This document shows positions 13-46,213 of a stretch of 64,000 nt of DNA, piece after piece. The translations under genes were made by a program, and so were the position numbers. Below the pieces are notes generated by a model, which did not search any database, was not told the origin of the DNA, and saw nothing but the letters and a program-made list of their open reading frames with translations. The stretch is from a phage: sequence record NC_135732.1; one strand, 5' to 3'. Every line of letters begins with the position of its first letter. Position 1 is the first letter of the stretch.

Positions 13-113
13 GGTGCTAGGTGATGGAATCGAACCACCTATGTATTCAACGACTACCTCGTCTATTTTCAGGATTAAAAATCCTCGCCCTTGCCAAAGG
101 GCTTACCTAGCTC
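13..113 (-). tRNA. tRNA-like element, atypical (about 99 nt); possible degenerate or insert-containing tRNA
   Basis: Minus-strand read: 7-bp acceptor stem GCTAGGT/ACCTAGC, D-arm GCCC-loop-GGGC, canonical T-arm GGTGG-TTCGATT-CCATC. No clean anticodon arm; best guess loop UUUUUAA (anticodon UUU) followed by a ~30-nt extra region. Confidence 0.35.
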
Positions 114-209
114 AGTATGTTGACCATGTTGCTAGTCGGCGATGACGACTGTAACATTTGATAATCCGGTTCTGCTTCCGGCTTTCGCTTAATTACAAGG
201 TCAACAATA

Positions 210-300
210 TGGCTGAGGGTAATGGAATCGAACCATCATCAAGTCATCCTCAACGGGACGGTTTTCAAGACCGCTTGAGCACCATTGCTCCCTACCCTCA
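210..300 (-). tRNA. tRNA-Ser (anticodon UGA), long variable arm, CCA encoded
   Basis: Hand-folded on minus strand: acceptor TGAGGGT/ACCCTCA, anticodon loop CTTGAAA, T-arm GATGG-TTCGATT-CCATT, 3' CCA at 210-212. Confidence 0.75.
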
Positions 301-414
301 TTTATAAACAATACTGATAATGACACTGATTTTCGAGCAGTTAGTGACTAGTATAAACGACGATAAATATCAATGCCATTATCTGTATGATTTATGCATT
401 TAAAACTATAAATT

Positions 415-501
415 TGGTGGGGAGTGGTGGAGTCGAACCACCCGAGTCGCAATGACAATAGATTTACAGTCTACACCGCTACCCCTACGGGATAACTCCC
501 C
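415..501 (-). tRNA. tRNA-Tyr (anticodon GUA), long variable arm, CCA encoded
   Basis: Acceptor GGGGAGT/ACTCCCC, anticodon stem GTAGA/TCTAT with loop CTGTAAA, T-arm GGTGG-TTCGACT-CCACC. Confidence 0.75.
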
Positions 502-505
502 AATT

Positions 506-580
506 TGGCACCCCGTACTGGACTCGAACCAGTGTCAACGGCTTAGAAGGCCGCTGCTTTATCCACTAAGCTAACAGGGC
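506..580 (-). tRNA. tRNA-Arg (anticodon UCU), CCA encoded
   Basis: Acceptor GCCCTGT/ACGGGGT (with G:U pairs), D-stem GCTT/AAGC, anticodon stem GCGGC/GCCGT with loop CTTCTAA, T-arm ACTGG-TTCGAGT-CCAGT. Confidence 0.75.
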
Positions 581-3116: not shown

Positions 3117-3467
3117 CTAACCAGTTGTTGACATCCGAATAACTTCTTCTGGTGGCAAAACTTTGGAAAATGTGCATCTTTTACCTCTCCCTTGTGTGGA
3201 TGTTTCAACCACTCCTGCACATTCTAAAGTTTTAACGCACGCTGCTGCTTTTGTTTTCTTTATCCCAACATCTGCTGCAATTTTCCTTGTGCTTGGTGTG
3301 AAGCGTGAATTTCCTCCAAGCTTATACCAGTTGTGCAGGTAGCAGTATACGATCTTGTCATACAAGTCAAGAACAACAACCTCCCCAGTTGTGTCATTCA
3401 AAACTTTTGACATAGATAGTATTTCAAGGGGGACTTTAAGATATAGCAGCTTATCCCCATCTTTCAT
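3117..3467 (-). CDS. putative helix-turn-helix DNA-binding protein
   Basis: 116-aa ORF; segment TRKIAADVGIKKTKAAACVKTLECAGVVE resembles an HTH motif. Assignment by eye only. Confidence 0.45.
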   Translation of the reverse strand: MKDGDKLLYLKVPLEILSMSKVLNDTTGEVVVLDLYDKIVYCYLHNWYKLGGNSRFTPSTRKIAADVGIKKTKAAACVKTLECAGVVETSTQGRGKRCTFSKVLPPEEVIRMSTTG

Positions 3468-3514
3468 ATCTCCTGATTCTCCTTGTGTGGCAATTTTCTT
3501 TAAAATAGCAGGGA

Positions 3515-4069
3515 TTACTCCCTGCTGTCAATATCAAAACTCATTGCAATACGGTATGCCTCTTCTAATGGTAAGAGTCTCCCCCACACATCCCAACCGA
3601 CATCAAGCTGCCTGCCAAACAACTGTTGTGTGGTTCCGTGAGCATGACCGAACAGTTGGACTGATCCGTGAGGCTTTCTGTTCCACTTTGCAAACTGGTA
3701 ATGGCTCATACAGATCAAATTCTTGTTGTGGCGAAGCTCGTAATAATCTACAACCTCATGACCGAACTCTTTCATAATTCTGACAGTCGTCCTTGTGTCA
3801 TGGTTGCCACGAACAAGAATAATATGTCCGTTCAACATATTTAGAATATCTGGAAGTAAGTTGTTGATATTCTTATCATTAGTGCACGCAATATCTCCCA
3901 AGTGGAACACAGTGTCTGCAGGTGACACAACAGAGTTCCACTCGGCGATGATTCCCGCATTCATACTGTCAAGATTGTGATCATACTGAGATCTGTGTTT
4001 TTGACATGAATCAAACTCCATGACCCGCTGGTGGAGAAAGTGTGTGTCGCTTGTTACAAAGTATTTCAT
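3515..4069 (-). CDS. calcineurin-like metallophosphoesterase; candidate RNA-end phosphatase (Pnkp-type)
   Basis: Motifs SDTHF, GDIxxxND, GNHD and GHxH. Start set to MKYF at 4069; the track start 4174 overlaps the upstream gene. Confidence 0.7.
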   Translation of the reverse strand: MKYFVTSDTHFLHQRVMEFDSCQKHRSQYDHNLDSMNAGIIAEWNSVVSPADTVFHLGDIACTNDKNINNLLPDILNMLNGHIILVRGNHDTRTTVRIMKEFGHEVVDYYELRHNKNLICMSHYQFAKWNRKPHGSVQLFGHAHGTTQQLFGRQLDVGWDVWGRLLPLEEAYRIAMSFDIDSRE

Positions 4070-40325: not shown

Positions 40326-40631
40326 ATGGCTAAATCTAAAGTTGAACTGTTCACCTCTCTTCCTTCTGACACTGCAGAGCGTGATCGCCTTCGCAAAACA
40401 ATCGAAGAACTGGTAGAACTCCAACTTCAGATTAAAGATCTGAAAGATGCCATTAAGGATATCATTCTCGTTGAGAAGCAGGATCACCTGTATTCTCCTA
40501 AATTCATCAAATCTCTGGTGGCTACCGAGTTCGATATTCGCTATGAGGCTGAAAAACGTCGCGCTAAAATCGAAGAAGAGGTTGAGCACATGTCTGAGGC
40601 AGACATTCTGTTCAAACGCTCTGTAGAATAA
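40326..40631 (+). CDS. hypothetical coiled-coil protein
   Basis: 101-aa ORF followed by a strong terminator. Confidence 0.5.
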   Translation: MAKSKVELFTSLPSDTAERDRLRKTIEELVELQLQIKDLKDAIKDIILVEKQDHLYSPKFIKSLVATEFDIRYEAEKRRAKIEEEVEHMSEADILFKRSVE

Positions 40632-40686: not shown

Positions 40687-41013
40687 ATGGGTATACCGAT
40701 TACTGTAAAAGAGCTAAATGAACGTGATGCAGGTGGTCTATGGCCTGCACGAAAAATCCGCTGCGTCTATATGAAAGAGAATCTTGAACATCTTGATCAA
40801 CAGATAAAGGTCGGCGATATTTTCGAGGTCTTCTATTCCAATCGTCGCAACTGGGAAACCATTCAACCTTCCGGTTTTGTTCTTGCTAAGCTCGACACTG
40901 GAGAAGTGATTATCCCAGGGTTGGATATTGTCTTCGAAATTATCCAGGAGTGGGATCCGGATAAGATTAGATACGAAGAGTTATTCGGTAAAGGTATTAT
41001 CAAACCTGTGTGA
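40687..41013 (+). CDS. hypothetical protein
   Basis: 108-aa ORF with GGAGA RBS. Confidence 0.5.
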   Translation: MGIPITVKELNERDAGGLWPARKIRCVYMKENLEHLDQQIKVGDIFEVFYSNRRNWETIQPSGFVLAKLDTGEVIIPGLDIVFEIIQEWDPDKIRYEELFGKGIIKPV

Positions 41014-41321
41014 GGTGGATTATGTCTACAAAGGCGGCTAAATACTCTTACATGCCATCAACCTCTGCAGAGGTAGACTTTAGTTTCGATGTGTTTCCAC
41101 TGTTTGAGGTGGTTCTGGCATACCCAACAATACTATCTACTCCTGAATCACTTGTGCCTGTTAAATTGCAGAACGCTATGCATTCTATGCACTACAACAA
41201 TAAATGTAGGCACAGATGGTGTCAGGACGAGGAAAAAGATTTAGATAGTTTGAGAGATTTTGACAGTCACCTTTTGACACCTTTCAGCTACTCCAACCTT
41301 GATAAGCCCTCATGGGTATAG
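41010..41321 (+). CDS. hypothetical protein
   Basis: 103-aa ORF. Confidence 0.45.
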   Translation: MRWIMSTKAAKYSYMPSTSAEVDFSFDVFPLFEVVLAYPTILSTPESLVPVKLQNAMHSMHYNNKCRHRWCQDEEKDLDSLRDFDSHLLTPFSYSNLDKPSWV

Positions 41322-41345
41322 CAAAATATCAAATTTAAGACACCT

Positions 41346-41372
41346 AGGACGCTCTGTGGCGTCCTTTTCTTT
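41346..41372 (+). terminator. rho-independent terminator
   Basis: AGGACGC-tctgt-GGCGTCCT followed by TTTCTTT. Confidence 0.6.
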
Positions 41373-41534
41373 ATCTGGTGCACGATTGCATACCTTGGAC
41401 AGATAATCTCATTACAGAGCGTTTAAGAGCTTCCTACAAACAAATCTCTCTTTCGAGCGTAGCGAGAACGCACGTCCGTTTTGACCCAAATCACCATACG
41501 CTCGGATTTTAACCAAACCCTCGCGGCGTTTCTG

Positions 41535-41563
41535 TTGACACATTACCGCTCTCGTGATAGTAT
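41535..41563 (+). promoter_or_regulatory. sigma70-like promoter
   Basis: TTGACA, 17-bp spacer, TAGTAT. Confidence 0.55.
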
Positions 41564-41583
41564 CCACACATCGTTTGGAGAAT

Positions 41584-41685
41584 ATGGAATACACAATGAG
41601 AACATTGTCTGAAGTTTTAGTGGTGATCCTGATGATCATTACATCCATAGCGGCTGTTGCCGGAATACTCACAGGTGGAACATGA
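41584..41685 (+). CDS. small hydrophobic protein, 33 aa
   Basis: Not in ORF track. GGAGAA RBS; ATGA overlap with the next ORF. Confidence 0.35.
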   Translation: MEYTMRTLSEVLVVILMIITSIAAVAGILTGGT

Positions 41686-41897
41686 TCAACACACATGCAT
41701 CTGAAGAGACATCCGAAGGAGTGACGACCATATGTAACCTGGCTGAGCCAGTGAAAGAGGAAAACTTCGATTCTGAAGATTCTCCATCTTCGCTCCAGGT
41801 AGACCCTGAGGCTGATGACCTGACGTGGGAGGACATCGTAGACATCTGGTTCTCTATTATGCCTGAGCACGAAGAGTTCAGAGGTGGTAGACTATGA
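41682..41897 (+). CDS. hypothetical acidic protein
   Basis: 71-aa ORF. Confidence 0.4.
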   Translation: MINTHASEETSEGVTTICNLAEPVKEENFDSEDSPSSLQVDPEADDLTWEDIVDIWFSIMPEHEEFRGGRL

Positions 41898-42017
41898 AGC
41901 ACCGAGCCCACACAGGTTCCTCATGCTAAAGCATGACCTGAAGAGGCAAACGTGCATAATTCCTGTGCATTGAAACGTATAAACCCTGTTCACACTCTCA
42001 TTCACAGAGGAGATTTC

Positions 42018-42233
42018 ATGAAGATAGAAATATTTGGTGGGGCTGACAACACTCGTGGCCTGATTTACCTTGAATTCGATGAATCATACCTGCCAGAGGT
42101 GTTAAATATAGACTCTGTTGCTGAGGCTTTGGGAGTAAACCCTAAAGAACTCCACTCTTGTGCTGAGATCGATGGTTGGGAAGAGACCATGAACATTGAT
42201 TTCAGTGAAGTAGAGGATGAACCGCTGGACTGA
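42018..42233 (+). CDS. small acidic protein (starts MKIEIFGG)
   Basis: Start ATG 42018 after GAGGAGA RBS. Confidence 0.45.
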   Translation: MKIEIFGGADNTRGLIYLEFDESYLPEVLNIDSVAEALGVNPKELHSCAEIDGWEETMNIDFSEVEDEPLD

Positions 42234-43699
42234 CACACAATTAGCTGCCCGGCTAAAGTGCTGGAAGCGCACCTATAACACATATTTCAACTAAATTTCC
42301 CACCACCACAATCACTTACCTACCACACGTGACTGTTTGCTTGTTTAGTGAGCAGTCATGCCTTGACATTCTTGCCTATCCTGATAAAATTAAGTTCTTC
42401 TCTTTTCTTTTACCGAGTAATTCGGGTTTTCTGTTCTCTTCGGTTTGAAGGGGTATGGAGATACACCTGAGTGAACAGGGTGAACAACCGAACCATTAGC
42501 TATGGCATTAGCATGGCGAAGCGGACGGGTGACGAAAGAGGGGCCGGAGGACACCAGTCACTGCCATATGATATATGGGTGATAACCTGAAGAGTCTGAA
42601 TAAGTGTTTAAGTACCAGTCAGAGGAAAAGGTGAATGGTAGCCGAAGGGGGAGGGGGGGTTTCTTGTATCTTTAATTTGTATATTATGTATACACTTGTA
42701 AACCAATTTCATATGAATCTGTTTACCACACAAAGTGGATTGAGACAAATATTACCTATTAAACTTGAATTATTTATAGAAAATACCACAACACACCTTA
42801 AGTCTTTGATTTTACACATAAATCTTACAGATATTCAACCTCCATATTTAACATACTTGTAACATATCCTATACCACACCTGCCTGATCAATTCCCCCAA
42901 CTACATCCTCTATATTTTCCCTGTCTGTACTACCCCATCCCCGCCGGGAGTCCCGTCATATCTGGCTTTCCAGCAAATATCACACCCACAAATATCATTG
43001 CCTGAAGAGGGTTTCATCCTCTAATACCTGCCTTACCTGAAGAGCGCTTCATACACCACGTAAATTTTTTAATTGACCTGCAATTTTCCCGTCATGACCC
43101 CCTGCCCCGCCGGAGAGGTTGGCTTTTCCCACACAGACCTGAAGAGTCAGCCAGAAATATCTGAACAGGCCCAATTCTACCACGATTTTGACCTGACCTA
43201 CAGGAGTGCTGCCAGGCGGACGAAATGGGAATACTTCTCATTCTTATAATAATTCTCAAATATCGAGGCAGTGAAGCAAATTAATAGGTGAGGCCGTTCA
43301 CATAGTGGCACAACATTTGCAATCTATTTTGTGTGGGGGAATGAGAATACCTATCATTGTGAGAACTGTTATCATTACGGGCAATTTAACATAATACCCA
43401 TTATGCGCACCACTGGCGATACATACAGGGATTGATAACATGAGTTACTGTTTACGCATATAACAATTATATTTATTACTATTTGTGTGGGATATAGTTA
43501 GCAGCCGATAGATTAGATATTGACCTGCGGACTTCTGACCGTCTAGACGTCTAAACGCCCACACAGCAAGAGTTATACATACATCGCTGAATGTAAACAG
43601 GGCCGCAAAAATGCTACCATACCAGTTTGTAAATTTTTCATGCAGCACTTGACAAAGAGGAGAAAAACTTGTCTGACATAATGTGACCTAACTGACACA

Positions 43700-43800
43700 A
43701 CATGACACTTTTACACACCTATTAGTTTACACACTGGATTGTTTACATTCCTGATTGTTCACATGCTAACCATTTACATGATTGACTGTTTACACACCGA
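43700..43800. repeat. Cluster of short direct repeats (iteron-like): TGTTTACA(C) and CATGACA
   Basis: Six or more copies of GTTTACA/TTTACAC within ~100 bp; further copies at ~44216 and ~44259. Confidence 0.7.
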
Positions 43801-43807
43801 TAATCAG

Positions 43808-44060
43808 CCATGCCATTCGTTTGCATGACAATAATTATACATGACAATAATCGCACTGATTATAATTAGCATGACATAATATAAAAGCAGGGCAACTATT
43901 AGCAGATCTATAGTTGCCTTGCTTGTTATGTCATGATTAACTAAATACAAGGCAACTATGATCTGATTAATAGTTTGCAGACAAACTATCACGGGGGTGA
44001 TGGTTACTGCTTTTATATTATGTCGCGACTCCGTCGCGCCATGCCATTCGTTTGCATAGT
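43808..44060. repeat. Composite element: 20-bp direct repeats flanking a 16-bp perfect inverted repeat and nested palindromes
   Basis: GCCATGCCATTCGTTTGCAT at 43808 and 44040; CATAATATAAAAGCAG (43875-43890) with its exact reverse complement at 44007-44022; palindrome GGCAACTAT...ATAGTTGCC at ~43891-43919. Confidence 0.75.
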
Positions 44061-44659
44061 TGCCTTATTGTTACAGATAAAATAATTGTATTGTTAATTA
44101 TTTCTTATCTTTCTATTAGTCATCTAATGATTTCAGTTAATATAGTAACGTACAGTAAACATTAGACGACTAAAGATTTCTCTGCTTATGGTAACCTAAC
44201 GTGACAATTCCAGACTGTTTACGAAAAATGTTGACACCTGGGCCGATTTATGTTATGCAGTTTACACGAATAATTATTTTATGCAGGTATTGACTATTCC
44301 GTTATTCTACGGTTGGAATAAATGCTTAGCAGGCTATAGAATGGCGAGCGTACGTAAATTCTGAGATCTGGCGGCTATAGTTATACTCGATTTTTCACGT
44401 AGAAAACGCTTTTGTAGTTATGTAAGTGTATGACTTATAAGAATTTTTAGTTGTTGACAAGCTATTGAAGATATGCATCAGGTTAAATTTTGTGCAAATG
44501 CTGCATTACGTGCAATTTTGGAAGGAAAAACGTGTAAAAATGGCCCTGCTACCACACAATGAAAAATTATGCAATAGTTATTTTATATGTATGTTTGTAC
44601 AGTGGGGTTAATTGCTGGCTTGTTGATTATTCCATTTGCCAGGCGGGGCCATTTGTGGT

Positions 44660-44700
44660 AGGAAAAGAGGAGACAAAAAGAAAGGGGCTTTAAGCCCCTG
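44660..44700 (-). terminator. terminator for the minus-strand block
   Basis: AGGGGCT-ttaa-AGCCCCT with a T-rich run on the minus strand. Confidence 0.55.
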
Positions 44701-44718
44701 ACCGTGCACCTTGTTGTA

Positions 44719-44931
44719 TTATTTGTTGCTCATCCAGTTTTCCCAAGCTGCCTGATAATCTGCCTCACTACGGCGGATCTCTTCTTGCTCTTCAAGGCGG
44801 ATCTCTTCTTCCAGGTACCCCAAGATGTCAGCCTTTTTGGTCTGGCGTAACATCCAATCATCTTTTTTTACGAGTGAAGATCTTATAAGCTTTCTCGCAA
44901 ACCTCTTTTTTGCTACCTTTCTGGACTTCAA
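44719..44931 (-). CDS. hypothetical protein
   Basis: 70-aa ORF. Confidence 0.4.
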   Translation of the reverse strand: MKSRKVAKKRFARKLIRSSLVKKDDWMLRQTKKADILGYLEEEIRLEEQEEIRRSEADYQAAWENWMSNK

Positions 44932-45060
44932 GAATTCTGTAGGCCATGTACTGAACTAATTTAAGCTGATCCAGACGTTTCATGATGTTTCCTCTTTATG
45001 TGGTTCGTTTTGATTAGTTGATAATACAGCAGTTCGCAGATCAGTCTTTAGCAATTCATG

Positions 45061-45279
45061 CTATTTACTCACAACGGTGTCGAAAACAAATTTTTCTTTA
45101 TTGTCTAAACTCACGTATCCGATTCGACCACGCAAGCCGCAAGTAGTGCCGTACTCGTAACCATTAAGGCCTTTAACCTTCCAATCCGTACCCATTAAAA
45201 CCGCATTATATTCCTGACCAACTACAAAAGCGCCCCCAGTCGATTCAATGCAAACAACTTTAATTTTACGGGTTGTCAT
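45061..45279 (-). CDS. hypothetical protein
   Basis: 72-aa ORF. Confidence 0.45.
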   Translation of the reverse strand: MTTRKIKVVCIESTGGAFVVGQEYNAVLMGTDWKVKGLNGYEYGTTCGLRGRIGYVSLDNKEKFVFDTVVSK

Positions 45280-45339
45280 TTTCTTTCTCTCTTTGTGTGG
45301 TTCTGATTAGTGGGCCTTTTGGCCCGTGTCATTATCTTA

Positions 45340-45612
45340 TTACTTACGGCGGCAGAATTCAAGCGTTTTTAATTGATAATCTTCCTCAGCCTGGAGTACA
45401 ACCGCCTCGATCATTTCGTTGGCATTGTTGAAGCCATACCCTTTAGCGAACTCATCCGCACCACCTTCGTGATCATGTTCTGCGTTCATCGCTTCCACGA
45501 AATGGAATTCAAGATTATTGAGATAAGGGCTTGATGTTCCGTCCTCTTTTTCGATGAGATCCCAAATAGCATTAAAACGTGATTCGACTTCTTGATTAAT
45601 CCAGCTTGACAT
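45340..45612 (-). CDS. hypothetical protein
   Basis: 90-aa ORF. Confidence 0.45.
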   Translation of the reverse strand: MSSWINQEVESRFNAIWDLIEKEDGTSSPYLNNLEFHFVEAMNAEHDHEGGADEFAKGYGFNNANEMIEAVVLQAEEDYQLKTLEFCRRK

Positions 45613-45865
45613 AATGTTTTCCTCTCTTCTGGTTGTTGTGTGGGCACTTTTGCCCCTTCAAGATAAATGTTACCCCACCCCATGGCAGATGTCAACGGTT
45701 TTTATAGTTCTTATATGACAGGCAGGCCCGGTGATTTGCGATCATAGTGATTCCTCCAGATCTTCCCGAACCTTTTCGGTTTATTCAGTTTATTGTTACG
45801 CTGGCGGCGTTCTGGCAGCTCTTCGGAATCGTGGGGGCGCTTTACAATTTTTTCGAAATTAATTT

Positions 45866-46213
45866 TCATAAATTTCCCCCTTTACTAATTTCAATATTTG
45901 CCTGAATCGCCCGGATACGACGTTTTATGACCTCCTGATCCTTGCAATCATATCCCCAAAAGTCTACGATCTTTGCGCCTCCGGCCTTTAGGCGGTATAG
46001 TGTTTCCTGCATCTTGTAAGCTGGGATCGGTCGCGGTGTTACCTGGTCGCCTCTCTCATCTTTGTACTTGATTATGTAGTCTTCGTTGTCGTTGAATACC
46101 CAAAATGGGTATTCTGTGAGCGCGTTGCTATCTTTTTCGTTTTTAGATTGGATCTTGTTTACAATTAAAGCCGTAGCAATAGCGCCAATAATAAAACTTG
46201 CCCCGCTGATCAT
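45866..46213 (-). CDS. hypothetical membrane-anchored protein
   Basis: N-terminal TM helix ISGASFIIGAIATALIV. Confidence 0.45.
   Translation of the reverse strand: MISGASFIIGAIATALIVNKIQSKNEKDSNALTEYPFWVFNDNEDYIIKYKDERGDQVTPRPIPAYKMQETLYRLKAGGAKIVDFWGYDCKDQEVIKRRIRAIQANIEISKGGNL

Follow-up and report, generated by a model that had tools for sequence, protein, structure and literature searches.

Non-coding interval between convergent gene blocks of a Vequintavirus as the probable terminal region of the genome, with a conserved promoter-led element and a branched palindrome

The ends of phage T7 are fixed and carry an exact direct repeat of only 160 bp, in the duplication of which hairpin intermediates and phiOR have a role. 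An array of CCTAAAG units with a 13-bp period follows the repeat on the same strand (175-341), and the promoters A0, phiOL, and A1-A3 lie in non-coding DNA by the ends. Herpesviruses have large palindromic origins (oriL and oriS in herpes simplex virus), and the T-shaped terminal hairpins of adeno-associated virus are large palindromic DNA elements, too. In human mtDNA, the reference form of CSB2 is G5AG7 followed by T tracts (PMC5027508); transcription stops there, and the RNA primes DNA synthesis. For Vequintavirus, a terminal repeat was already published (PMC6563267, PMC7471380). The published repeat lengths are 458 bp for HdK5 and EdH4, 459 bp for Gotham, and 514 bp for KPP-1, a phage of another genus, and fixed, non-permuted ends were reported for Gotham and KPP-1. 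Some papers describe Vequintavirus or PVP-SE1 as circularly permuted, in conflict with fixed ends; they seem to stem from software defaults or from older inferences based on restriction digests.

The DNA analysed here (the window) is 64,000 nucleotides long and was taken from the record NC_135732.1. Its source is a Vequintavirus, i.e., an rV5-like myophage, with 121 phage records matching at 85-97% identity. A non-coding stretch between convergent gene blocks had been noticed and is located at 42234-44700, with the plus-strand block on its left and the minus-strand block on its right; the corresponding box was labelled 'non-coding' in the rV5 paper. Almost all of the repeats listed in the original prediction are present and non-random, and Tandem Repeats Finder revealed nothing beyond two weak repeats of 10-12 nt. 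Features of the interval are collected in Table 1.

Table 1. Features predicted in and next to the interval, in window coordinates.
Feature	Position	Strand	Basis or remark
Last gene of the plus-strand block	42018-42233	+	
Right-end unique non-coding zone	42234..43214		Just inside the right-hand repeat copy in virion DNA
Predicted σ70-type promoter TTGACA-N16-TGaTAAAAT	42363..42390	+	Consensus match; directed to the terminal repeat
Ultra-conserved G/A-rich element, ~265 nt	42397..42662	+	Vequintavirus-specific; candidate non-coding/primer RNA
Oriented CCTGAAGAG boxes	42586-42594, 43001-43009, 43036-43044, 43138-43146	+	All left of the repeat
Bipartite G tract G5-A-G7, then TTTCTT	42647..42659	+	Sequence; 3' edge of the conserved element
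AT-rich trough, GC 25-28%	42700..42850		GC profile; right after the G tract
C-rich boxes CCCCATCCCCGCCGG and CCCCTGCCCCGCCGG	42933-47 and 43099-113	+	
Pair AAATATCAC-N8-AAATATCAT	42975-43000	+	
Predicted left physical end of virion DNA	43215		Start point of HdK5 and Gotham
Predicted direct terminal repeat, 459 bp	43215..43673		Homology to end-mapped HdK5 and Gotham
Best-conserved cross-genus motif within the repeat, ATTTAACATAATACCCATTATGCGCACCAC	43383..43412		Includes the palindrome CATAAT-N4-ATTATG
Predicted right physical end of virion DNA	43673		Repeat end of HdK5
Hypervariable short-repeat arrays (the predicted 'iterons')	43674..43806	+	Self-repeat search
Perfect 20-bp direct repeats GCCATGCCATTCGTTTGCAT bracketing the palindrome	43807-43826 and 44038-44057	+	Conserved in relatives
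Branched palindrome	43873..44024		Base stem and two nested hairpins
Perfect 18-bp base stem (inverted repeat)	43873-43890 / 44007-44024		116 nt between the arms
Long imperfect hairpin of GGCAACTAT boxes	43892-43978		GATC in each of two 10-bp spacers between paired boxes
Short hairpin in the palindrome	43984-44005		
Second AT-rich trough, GC 23-28%	44050..44200		Directly right of the palindrome
Intrinsic terminator closing the leftward gene block	44683..44699	-	Also annotated in HdK5, Murica, Alma, and Gotham

Homology with end-mapped relatives makes it very probable that the interval is a terminal region, which forms the junction in concatemers, and that the genome has fixed ends carrying a short direct repeat. 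The first and last 459 bases of the HdK5 record are identical and map to 43215 and 43673 of the window, which holds one repeat copy and whose end positions are taken from 93-97% identical relatives. In the Gotham record, a repeat_region is annotated at 1-459, and its start is equivalent to 43215; the ends of HdK5 and Gotham were mapped independently of each other. The ECP2303 and Aya records are opened at 43673/4. A 'packaging or recombination site' had been among the suggested roles, and its packaging part agrees with this placement of the virion ends and of the repeat. KPP-1 has a 514-bp repeat of T7 type at the same convergent junction. No shared proteins were found in tblastx of the KPP-1 flanks against the window flanks, so the flanking genes were unusable as anchors; a conserved 101-aa protein encoded at 40326 was also rejected as an anchor, not being syntenic with the junction in KPP-1. 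Genome ends and a terminal repeat within the interval had been missed in the original prediction.

The published repeats of Vequintavirinae are at the same locus, and the Vequintavirus records have 93-97% identical sequence there, but the papers give the repeat length only, without arrays, palindrome, boundary motifs, or promoter-driven element. A literature search in the searchable library found none of these features described. The motif (A/G)CGGAC at the repeat start and TTTGTAAAT...CTTGACA...TTGT at the repeat end are common to Vequintavirus, Mydovirus, and Seunavirus, and the boundary motifs are kept in eight Mydovirus and Seunavirus genomes. Directly outside both boundaries are hypervariable hot spots of indels. 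Within the repeat, positions 43380-43439 are 98.4% conserved, and the ATTTAACATAATACCCATTATGCGCACCAC motif aligns to KPP-1 2727-2756 (E=4.6e-4) and is present in PVP-SE1 and 4MG. IMG/VR scans recognized four loci but no additional genus with the repeat-end motif, and two loci with the 20-mer. As a probe in IMG/VR, the pattern of the AAATATCAC pair was too unspecific, hitting 120 mostly unrelated loci.

Left of the repeat, the four expected copies of CCTGAAGAG were found, with a fifth at 41937. There are six in the whole window versus 0.59 expected, a number reached in none of 100 shuffles. PVP-SE1 has five CCTRAAG boxes with like orientation and position, GAP31 three, 4MG two, and KPP-1, Mydo, and KNP2 one each; in every genus examined, such boxes are oriented and are enriched on the left side of the repeat. 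Over the whole window, CCTGAAG is on the plus strand 19 times and on the minus strand twice, partly because of coding-strand usage. The CCCCGCCGG boxes are present (42939 and 43105), and KPP-1, PVP-SE1, and 4MG have counterparts of the C-rich boxes on this side of the repeat. Positions 42960-43019 are 98.5% conserved. GC skew is -0.3 to -0.65 over 42700-43150, and beyond the trough the plus strand is strongly C-rich and G-poor to about 43150.

The locus resembles the T7 ends in several respects. The ends, placed by homology, would be fixed and the direct repeat is short and exact (459 bp); a same-strand array, here of TGACA/TTTACA from 43674, comes right after the repeat; a predicted promoter, at 42363, is in non-coding DNA by the ends; and a 7-mer in one orientation is beside the repeat, CCTGAAG being one base apart from CCTAAAG, a likeness that may be due to chance. 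Unlike T7, the phage is a 137-kb myovirus; it lacks an RNA polymerase of its own, and its promoters are therefore all of host type. Also different are the longer repeat with about 1 kb of non-coding flank on each side, the transcription of both flanking gene sets toward the ends, and the presence of a large conserved branched palindrome and a conserved element of 265 nt.

The palindrome is right of the arrays. Its outer inverted repeat had been described as 16 bp long; the 116-nt gap was correct, and the arms are 18 bp. Both 20-bp direct repeats are present and perfect, and an inverted-repeat search confirmed the palindromes nested inside. Fold z-scores are -10.5 to -11.1, as DNA or RNA and on either strand. 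The palindrome is 98.8-99.6% conserved, insertions being confined to the apical loop, and eight genomes of Mydovirus and Seunavirus show the same architecture at a distance of 200-310 bp from the repeat. Both sides are changed in 10 of the 21 base stem pairs, which none of 500 shuffles equalled, with 96.4% of cells paired. No one-sided (G·U) change was found in the 18 core pairs in eight taxa. The nested hairpins covary as well, with one T·G in 4MG. Base pairing of the palindrome is under selection, and the base stem is strictly Watson-Crick, as a DNA-level structure would be. A miniature transposable element was considered for the 18-bp inverted repeat and rejected: it is single-copy, at the same position in three genera, and without target duplication. 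With the palindromes of herpes simplex and adeno-associated viruses, the likeness is in a long stem around smaller palindromes near a genome end or concatemer junction, the virus replicating by way of concatemers; in the phage palindrome, it is the pairing that is conserved and not the sequence. Homology to these viruses is absent in both sequence and proteins, and the phage palindrome is 200-310 bp away from the repeat, not at the very end.

On the other side of the repeat, the proposed promoter TTGACA-16-TAAAAT was recognized with 11 of 12 matches and a TG-extended -10. Across 19 genomes, neither the -35 nor the -10 varies, whereas the divergent relative L007 has a spacer of another sequence and length; the promoter is not annotated in the rV5 record. 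Column identity of the following G/A-rich element is 98-99.6%, versus about 95% in the flanking genes. In 118 phage records, the element is present with 97% identity or more, and hardly any of them annotates it. No homologue was found in E. coli genomes, and its nhmmer profile had no significant match in the junction loci of other genera. GC skew is +0.3 to +0.54 over 42450-42700. A G9 run reported at 42654-42662 is absent, the sequence being G5-A-G7; relatives have G4-6 A G6-7 with heterogeneity in length, and conservation falls just 3' of the tract. The promoter, the G-rich non-template strand, G5AG7, and then AT-rich DNA match the layout expected of a transcription-primed origin, as in ColE1 RNA II, mitochondrial CSB2, or the promoter-origins of T7. 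CSB2 has the identical bipartite G tract and Ts on the non-template strand with a promoter upstream, and the phage tract also shows run-length heterogeneity among relatives and AT-rich DNA just beyond. Differences from CSB2 are the polymerase, which would be bacterial in the phage, and the conservation of the whole 265 nt, not of the G tract alone; the G5AG7 likeness may be a chance similarity of a low-complexity motif.

Alternatively, the interval could mainly encode non-coding RNA, with an early RNA of about 265 nt from 42363 and perhaps a structured RNA spanning the palindrome. This is quite possible, if slightly on the doubtful side. Promoter hexamers conserved beside a drifting spacer, and a block more conserved than genes in 118 genomes, would be expected of such an RNA. 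In the alifold consensus, eight of the 11 variable columns are unpaired and two of the three paired ones keep pairing on the plus strand only, so that substitutions avoid the predicted stems; the comparison rests on these 11 columns, and 99% identity precludes a real covariation test. A precedent is pseudo-ToxI of ΦTE, an rV5-like Pectobacterium phage, which is a non-coding RNA expressed between genes, at 106.7 kb of the 142-kb map. The map position is similar to that of the interval (104-106.6 kb of 138 kb in rV5), but the interval is without ToxI-like repeats and without an Rfam ToxI match. Furthermore, both strands have a GC-rich hairpin with a U tract (43984-44014 on plus, 43924-43875 on minus), and the minus-strand terminator is annotated in Alma and Murica. 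Against the RNA reading, only tRNAs at 15-580 pass the Rfam gathering score in the window, and there is no credible match in 42200-44750 even at E<10; microRNA-type matches on the palindromes were discarded as chance. The fold z-score of the element is -0.9, no better than that of shuffled sequence, and its 3' end at 42662 is without a canonical hairpin terminator. The base stem free of G·U also disagrees with a palindrome-spanning RNA, and a search for a conserved promoter upstream of the palindrome was negative. The suggestion of structured RNAs is plausible for 42397-42662 and not for the palindromes, whose base stem pairs as a DNA-level structure. CsrB-like enrichment of GGA in the element was dismissed, with about six counted by eye versus about ten expected.

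The arrays begin at the first base after 43673, with (T/G)GACA units about 10-11 bp apart and then TGTTTAC/TTCAC units about 16 bp apart. The predicted iteron-like cluster is real in that four TTTACA-type units, 77% alike, are located at 43710-43794 with 16-16-31 nt spacing; copies of CATGACA placed at 43700-43800 are mostly at 43824-43876. It is rather unlikely that the interval is mainly a replication origin, with the iterons at 43700-43800 as initiator binding sites and unwinding at the palindrome and AT-rich 44050-44200. The regular spacing of the direct repeats is consistent with this, as are the palindrome selected for pairing and followed by DNA of 23-28% GC, and the palindromic precedents in herpesviruses. 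An origin would also be compatible with genome ends in the same interval. However, conservation is lowest in the array zone (67% identity, with indels); in 16 genomes the zone is 115-211 bp long, with two to five TGACA and one to nine TT[TC]AC units, the unit number varying even between nearly identical phages. The array is absent at the Mydovirus and Seunavirus junctions. DnaA boxes, searched with relaxed settings, were nine versus 9.3 expected and formed no cluster, and there is no adjacent initiator gene; neither of the two flanking genes examined has an assigned function. These results speak against the iterons as an origin. The maximum of cumulative GC skew is in the interval, but it tracks gene orientation and is there only because transcription converges; the rV5 authors likewise found skew following gene orientation, and their skew analysis did not locate the rV5 origin, which leaves room for one here. 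By analogy, the arrays resemble the T7 array beside the terminal repeat more than origin iterons.

A role of the palindrome solely as an elaborate two-way terminator or insulator, with the rest of the interval as a spacer between convergent gene blocks, is improbable. The gene blocks do converge here, and a bidirectional terminator was expected at this point by the rV5 authors. The hairpins are followed by T-rich arms on both strands, and C-rich, G-poor 42700-43150 would resemble a Rho loading site. But KPP-1 and its relatives keep a perfect stem of 17-21 bp and the nested hairpins though the arms are not U-rich, and a mere spacer would not keep blocks of 98-99.6% identity or cross-genus motifs. 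Finally, that unannotated small protein genes fill the interval is extremely improbable: several GenBank records place one to 14 'hypothetical proteins' there, with short CDSs in Mangalyan, MiataMamis, 366V, FFH2, and Alma, but these annotations contradict one another, none of the 24 ORFs of at least 30 aa has third-codon-position bias (variable columns by codon position are 9/7/34 and 19/12/62 in the flanking genes), and most are interrupted in relatives, all three at 44465-44709 being intact in none of 18, which upholds the claim of no credible ORF.

In the preferred reading as a terminal region, virion DNA would run from 43215 and finish with a second copy of 43215-43673. In the concatemer, a single repeat copy would be placed between the right-end spacer (42234-43214) and the left-end spacer (43674-44700), and terminase, the large-subunit gene of which is presumably outside the 64-kb window by rV5 map position, would cut at both repeat boundaries while the repeat gets duplicated, as in packaging of T7 type. 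The arrays on the right of the repeat, together with the CCTGAAG boxes that share one orientation on its left, may be protein-binding arrays for end recognition, like the CCTAAAG arrays of T7, rather than replication iterons. From the 42363 promoter, host RNA polymerase would early transcribe the G/A-rich element into a non-coding RNA or into a primer or R-loop RNA. The palindrome and the adjacent AT-rich DNA would act as DNA, a hairpin or cruciform serving to duplicate the repeat or to fire an origin, and the palindrome may double as a two-way terminator in Vequintavirus.

The terminal repeat itself is known; the 42363 promoter with the conserved element of about 265 nt and the cross-genus branched palindrome appear to be new here. 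That these two unannotated cis elements are signals of a new kind for replication or maturation in phages is a speculative idea, and an unlikely one. In such a case, the G/A-rich element might be an origin primed by host RNA polymerase, with an R-loop or a hybrid G-quadruplex as the means, or it might give a new phage RNA of the early phase; the palindrome might prime terminal-repeat duplication or fire an origin. If true, the palindrome would be a tailed-phage counterpart of herpesvirus palindromic origins and parvovirus terminal hairpins. The rV5-like phages are widely used in typing of E. coli O157 and in therapy cocktails. Most GenBank records open their genomes arbitrarily and leave this region blank or with spurious genes. 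Ends at 43215/43673 would give the correct genome start, account for the breaking of assemblies here, and allow false 'hypothetical proteins' to be removed. The boundary motifs, the oriented boxes, the palindrome covarying across three genera, and the 265-nt element make a list of cis elements for engineering and for studies of mechanism. Duplication of short terminal repeats is poorly understood beyond T7, and a conserved hairpin 200-310 bp away from the repeat would make it testable in a second, unrelated group.

Physical chromosome ends and a direct terminal repeat lie inside the gene-free interval 42240-44700, between the convergent plus- and minus-strand gene blocks, as the record ends of phages HdK5, Gotham, ECP2303, and Aya map there. 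Several database records break within the interval at recurring positions. The record of HdK5, a Vequintavirus relative, has 459 identical bases at both ends, the first corresponding to window position 43215 and the last to 43673; the authors of HdK5 and EdH4 described 'short terminal redundancies of 458 bp'. On the record of Gotham, from the same genus, a repeat_region 1-459 is annotated, which starts at 43215 with matching sequence, and the records of ECP2303 and Aya were both opened exactly at 43673/4. The interval is therefore the concatemer junction, composed of a 981-bp right-end spacer, the repeat, and a 1027-bp left-end spacer. At the published ends the pattern of sequence evolution changes abruptly, so the boundaries are independently supported: in an alignment of 19 genomes over 40740-46200, conservation collapses five bases past the right boundary, and the left one is preceded, at 11 bases, by an indel hot spot where either of two insertions occurs, of about 29 or 50 bp. 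Most relatives have one or the other of these insertions; the window, rV5, WalterGehring, B9-1, and Murica have neither. Each insertion has a small hairpin, and one duplicates GGAGTGCTGCC.

In the database search, 121 phage records matched the 2461 bases of the interval with 85-97% identity, all of them Vequintavirus (rV5-like E. coli myophages). About 19 MG0656xx records named 'Campylobacter phage' carry the E. coli Vequintavirus region with 84-94% identity and the same taxonomy. Both of the two examined are marked UNVERIFIED, and these records are probably mislabelled or derived from contaminating coliphages. The rV5 counterpart is situated between ORF163 and ORF164 and is drawn in the rV5 genome paper as a grey box labelled 'non-coding'. 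No origin was located in rV5, because AT/GC-skew shifts track transcription direction only, according to its authors. The predicted lack of genes was borne out when each ORF of at least 30 aa was compared with the 19-genome alignment. No excess of third-codon-position variation was found in any of them, and in two flanking genes the variable columns at codon positions 1/2/3 number 9/7/34 and 19/12/62. Most of these ORFs are broken in relatives, and three at 44465-44709 are intact in none of 18; the scattered 'hypothetical proteins' of some GenBank records are therefore over-annotation.

Immediately adjoining the terminal region is a gene-content swap. Only about one in four of the 19 aligned genomes has the roughly 290 bp at 45000-45290 of the window (identity column 0.26, gaps 0.74), and most relatives have in their place a 420-nt gene, rV5 ORF164, immediately past the terminator. 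A 101-aa protein encoded at 40326-40631 (+) belongs to PHROG 639 'transcriptional regulator', with no Pfam match. In 114 phage records its identity is 99% or more, and homologues 42-60% identical occur across Vequintavirinae, the copy of KPP-1 (Mydovirus) being away from the junction. A tRNA cluster for Ser-TGA, Tyr-GTA, and Arg-TCT at 13-580 (-) includes a 99-nt tRNA-like gene at 13-111, with a four-base anticodon (atcc) by ARAGORN and an Rfam tRNA score of only 35.5 bits.

Features of the junction and identity of its segments among 19 genomes (window positions)
Feature	Position	Strand	Remark
End of plus gene block	42233	+	
Promoter hexamers	42363-42390		invariant
Conserved segment	42360-42660		identity 98-99.6%, above coding flanks
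Promoter-driven element	42397-42662	+	
G5-A-G7	42647-42659		
Conserved segment	42960-43019		identity 98.5%, above coding flanks
Insertion site	43203/43204		
Terminal repeat	43215-43673		
Tandem pair TGAGAAnnnnTATCATT	43342-43377		18 bp
Conserved segment	43380-43439		identity 98.4%, above coding flanks
Cross-genus 30-mer	43383-43412		within repeat
'Iteron' zone	43680-43800		identity 67%, lowest of whole region
TTTACA-type units	43710-43794		16-nt spacing
20-bp direct repeats	43807 and 44038		perfect
Branched palindrome	43873-44024		
GATC (Dam methylation site)	43904-43907, 43960-43963		one per 10-bp spacer between paired GGCAACTAT boxes
Conserved segment	43920-44100		identity 96.8-99.6%, above coding flanks
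AT-rich trough after palindrome	44050-44200		GC 23-28%
Intrinsic terminator closing minus gene block	44683-44699	-	

Other genera of the subfamily share the junction layout. At its own gene-free junction of convergent blocks, KPP-1 carries a T7-type repeat published as 514 bp long, and the same gap between convergent blocks is present in PVP-SE1, 4MG, GAP31, Mydo, and KNP2. Some papers describe Vequintavirus or PVP-SE1 as circularly permuted, which conflicts with fixed ends, but these reports are regarded as weaker than two explicit end determinations. In phages of PVP-SE1 type, cited as circularly permuted in an earlier paper, the terminal repeat would, judging from the boundary motifs, be about 515 bp long (1397 to ~1912 of PVP-SE1 locus L146; also 4MG, L147, and GAP31, L148). 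Identity among the 19 genomes is about 95% in the coding flanks and 94% in the terminal repeat. Sequences of different genera can hardly be aligned, and their flanks were found to have no protein in common. The recurring cross-genus motifs are TAG(A/G)CGGAC at the repeat start (CAGGCGGAC in the window), TTTGTAAAT-N-CTTGACA...TTGT at the repeat end, the 30-mer, the AAATATCAC/AAATATCAT pair, C-rich boxes, and CCTGAAG boxes. The tandem pair, inside the repeat, is annotated as repeat_region in some records. Related KPP-1 boxes TGATAAGGATTATCA (3440-3520 and 3643-3660 of locus L026) resemble a Fur-box-type palindrome (7-1-7) that is nearly perfect, and one nested hairpin of the KPP-1 palindrome is formed by such a box.

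From the repeat end to the first 20-bp direct repeat, the zone has two arrays: (T/G)GACA units, spaced by about one helical turn, abut the repeat boundary, and TGTTTAC/TTCAC units about 16 bp apart come after them. The iteron-like cluster is real, but its reading as an origin is not supported: the zone ranges over 115-211 bp among 16 genomes, with 2-5 units of the first array and 1-9 of the second, relaxed DnaA boxes are not enriched, and no adjoining initiator gene was found. Origin iterons would not be expected to vary in this way among phages with nearly identical replication proteins. The Mydovirus and Seunavirus junctions compared lack the zone. In T7, a CCTAAAG array with 13-bp period starts 15 bp past the 160-bp terminal repeat; the window arrays likewise adjoin the repeat. 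Across the repeat from them are CCTGAAG-type boxes, one base different from the T7 unit and on the plus strand only in every genus examined, with five in 667 bp of PVP-SE1 versus about 0.1 expected. We infer that the arrays and boxes serve in end recognition. Over the whole window, CCTGAAG has 19 copies on the plus strand and two on the minus strand (about 4 expected per strand), including 3 (+) versus 0 (-) where genes run on the minus strand; this bias may represent a genome-wide polar motif or a coding-strand bias.

The inverted repeat is perfect with 116 nt between its arms, as predicted, but 18 and not 16 bp long; the nested palindromes, the CCCCGCCGG boxes, and the direct repeats are present as well, and CCTGAAGAG has six copies in the window (0.59 expected), five of them within 41937-43146. 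The palindrome folds into the 18-bp stem, a long imperfect hairpin with four GGCAACTAT boxes, and a short hairpin, with z-scores of -10.5 to -11.1 as DNA or RNA on either strand. Within the genus, insertions are confined to its apical loop, as are most substitutions. A palindromic element at the corresponding site, 200-310 bp inward of the repeat, was found in eight Mydovirus and Seunavirus genomes, with a 17-21-bp perfect stem, two or three nested hairpins, and arms identical to the window at 12 of 18 positions. Changes on both sides were recorded in 10 of 21 arm pairs, with 96.4% of cells paired; none of 500 shuffles and no slid control came close. The 18 core pairs of the aligned arms have no one-sided (G·U) change. 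The nested hairpin beside the 5' arm also covaries (CGATCACGC/GCGTGATCG, CGATCAAC/GTTGATCG, CGATTAGC/GCTAATCG). Pairing is therefore under selection, and its restriction to Watson-Crick pairs suggests a structure to be formed by both strands of the DNA. In the window, T-rich arms follow the internal hairpins on both strands, so the palindrome is predicted to act also as a two-way terminator. Its minus-strand terminator was marked by two annotation teams; KPP-1-type genomes have not retained the T-rich arms. Candidate roles of the palindrome are hairpin-primed repeat duplication, origin function, or insulation.

The promoter at 42363 was confirmed, with a score of 11/12 and a TG extended -10. 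The most divergent Vequintavirus relative (L007) has a promoter spacer of different sequence and length and has lost the 40 bp upstream. Across all 118 records in which the 265 nt downstream of the promoter occur, identity is at least 97%; this element is almost never annotated there and has stops in all frames. No counterpart was found in E. coli genomes, other phages, or the junctions of other genera, and no Rfam family matched. The strand is purine-rich (GC skew as high as +0.54) and closes with G5AG7-TTTCTT, where a G9 run had mistakenly been reported. Past this motif conservation drops, and an AT-rich trough (GC 25-28%) is followed by a C-rich, G-poor stretch. The alifold consensus pairs 65% of columns and leaves 8 of 11 variable columns unpaired (binomial p ~0.01, biased as alifold was built on the same alignment). 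Of the three changes in paired columns, two (G·U to A-U; C-G to U·G) preserve pairing on the plus strand only, and the fold energy is no better than that of shuffles. The candidate element is probably transcribed, into what could be a free RNA or else an RNA that acts as a primer or in an R-loop. The same G5AG7-T motif is the reference form of CSB2 in human mitochondria, at which transcription stops and primes replication (PMC5027508); this likeness may serve as a lead only.

The original prediction was largely correct in observation and partly in interpretation, right on the packaging site, as the genome ends are there, and not supported on the iterons as an origin. The terminal repeat, which it did not include, is the central fact, although publications on the genus already report it. 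In the literature searched, no description was found of the conserved palindrome or of the promoter-driven element, and these two are the part worth follow-up.
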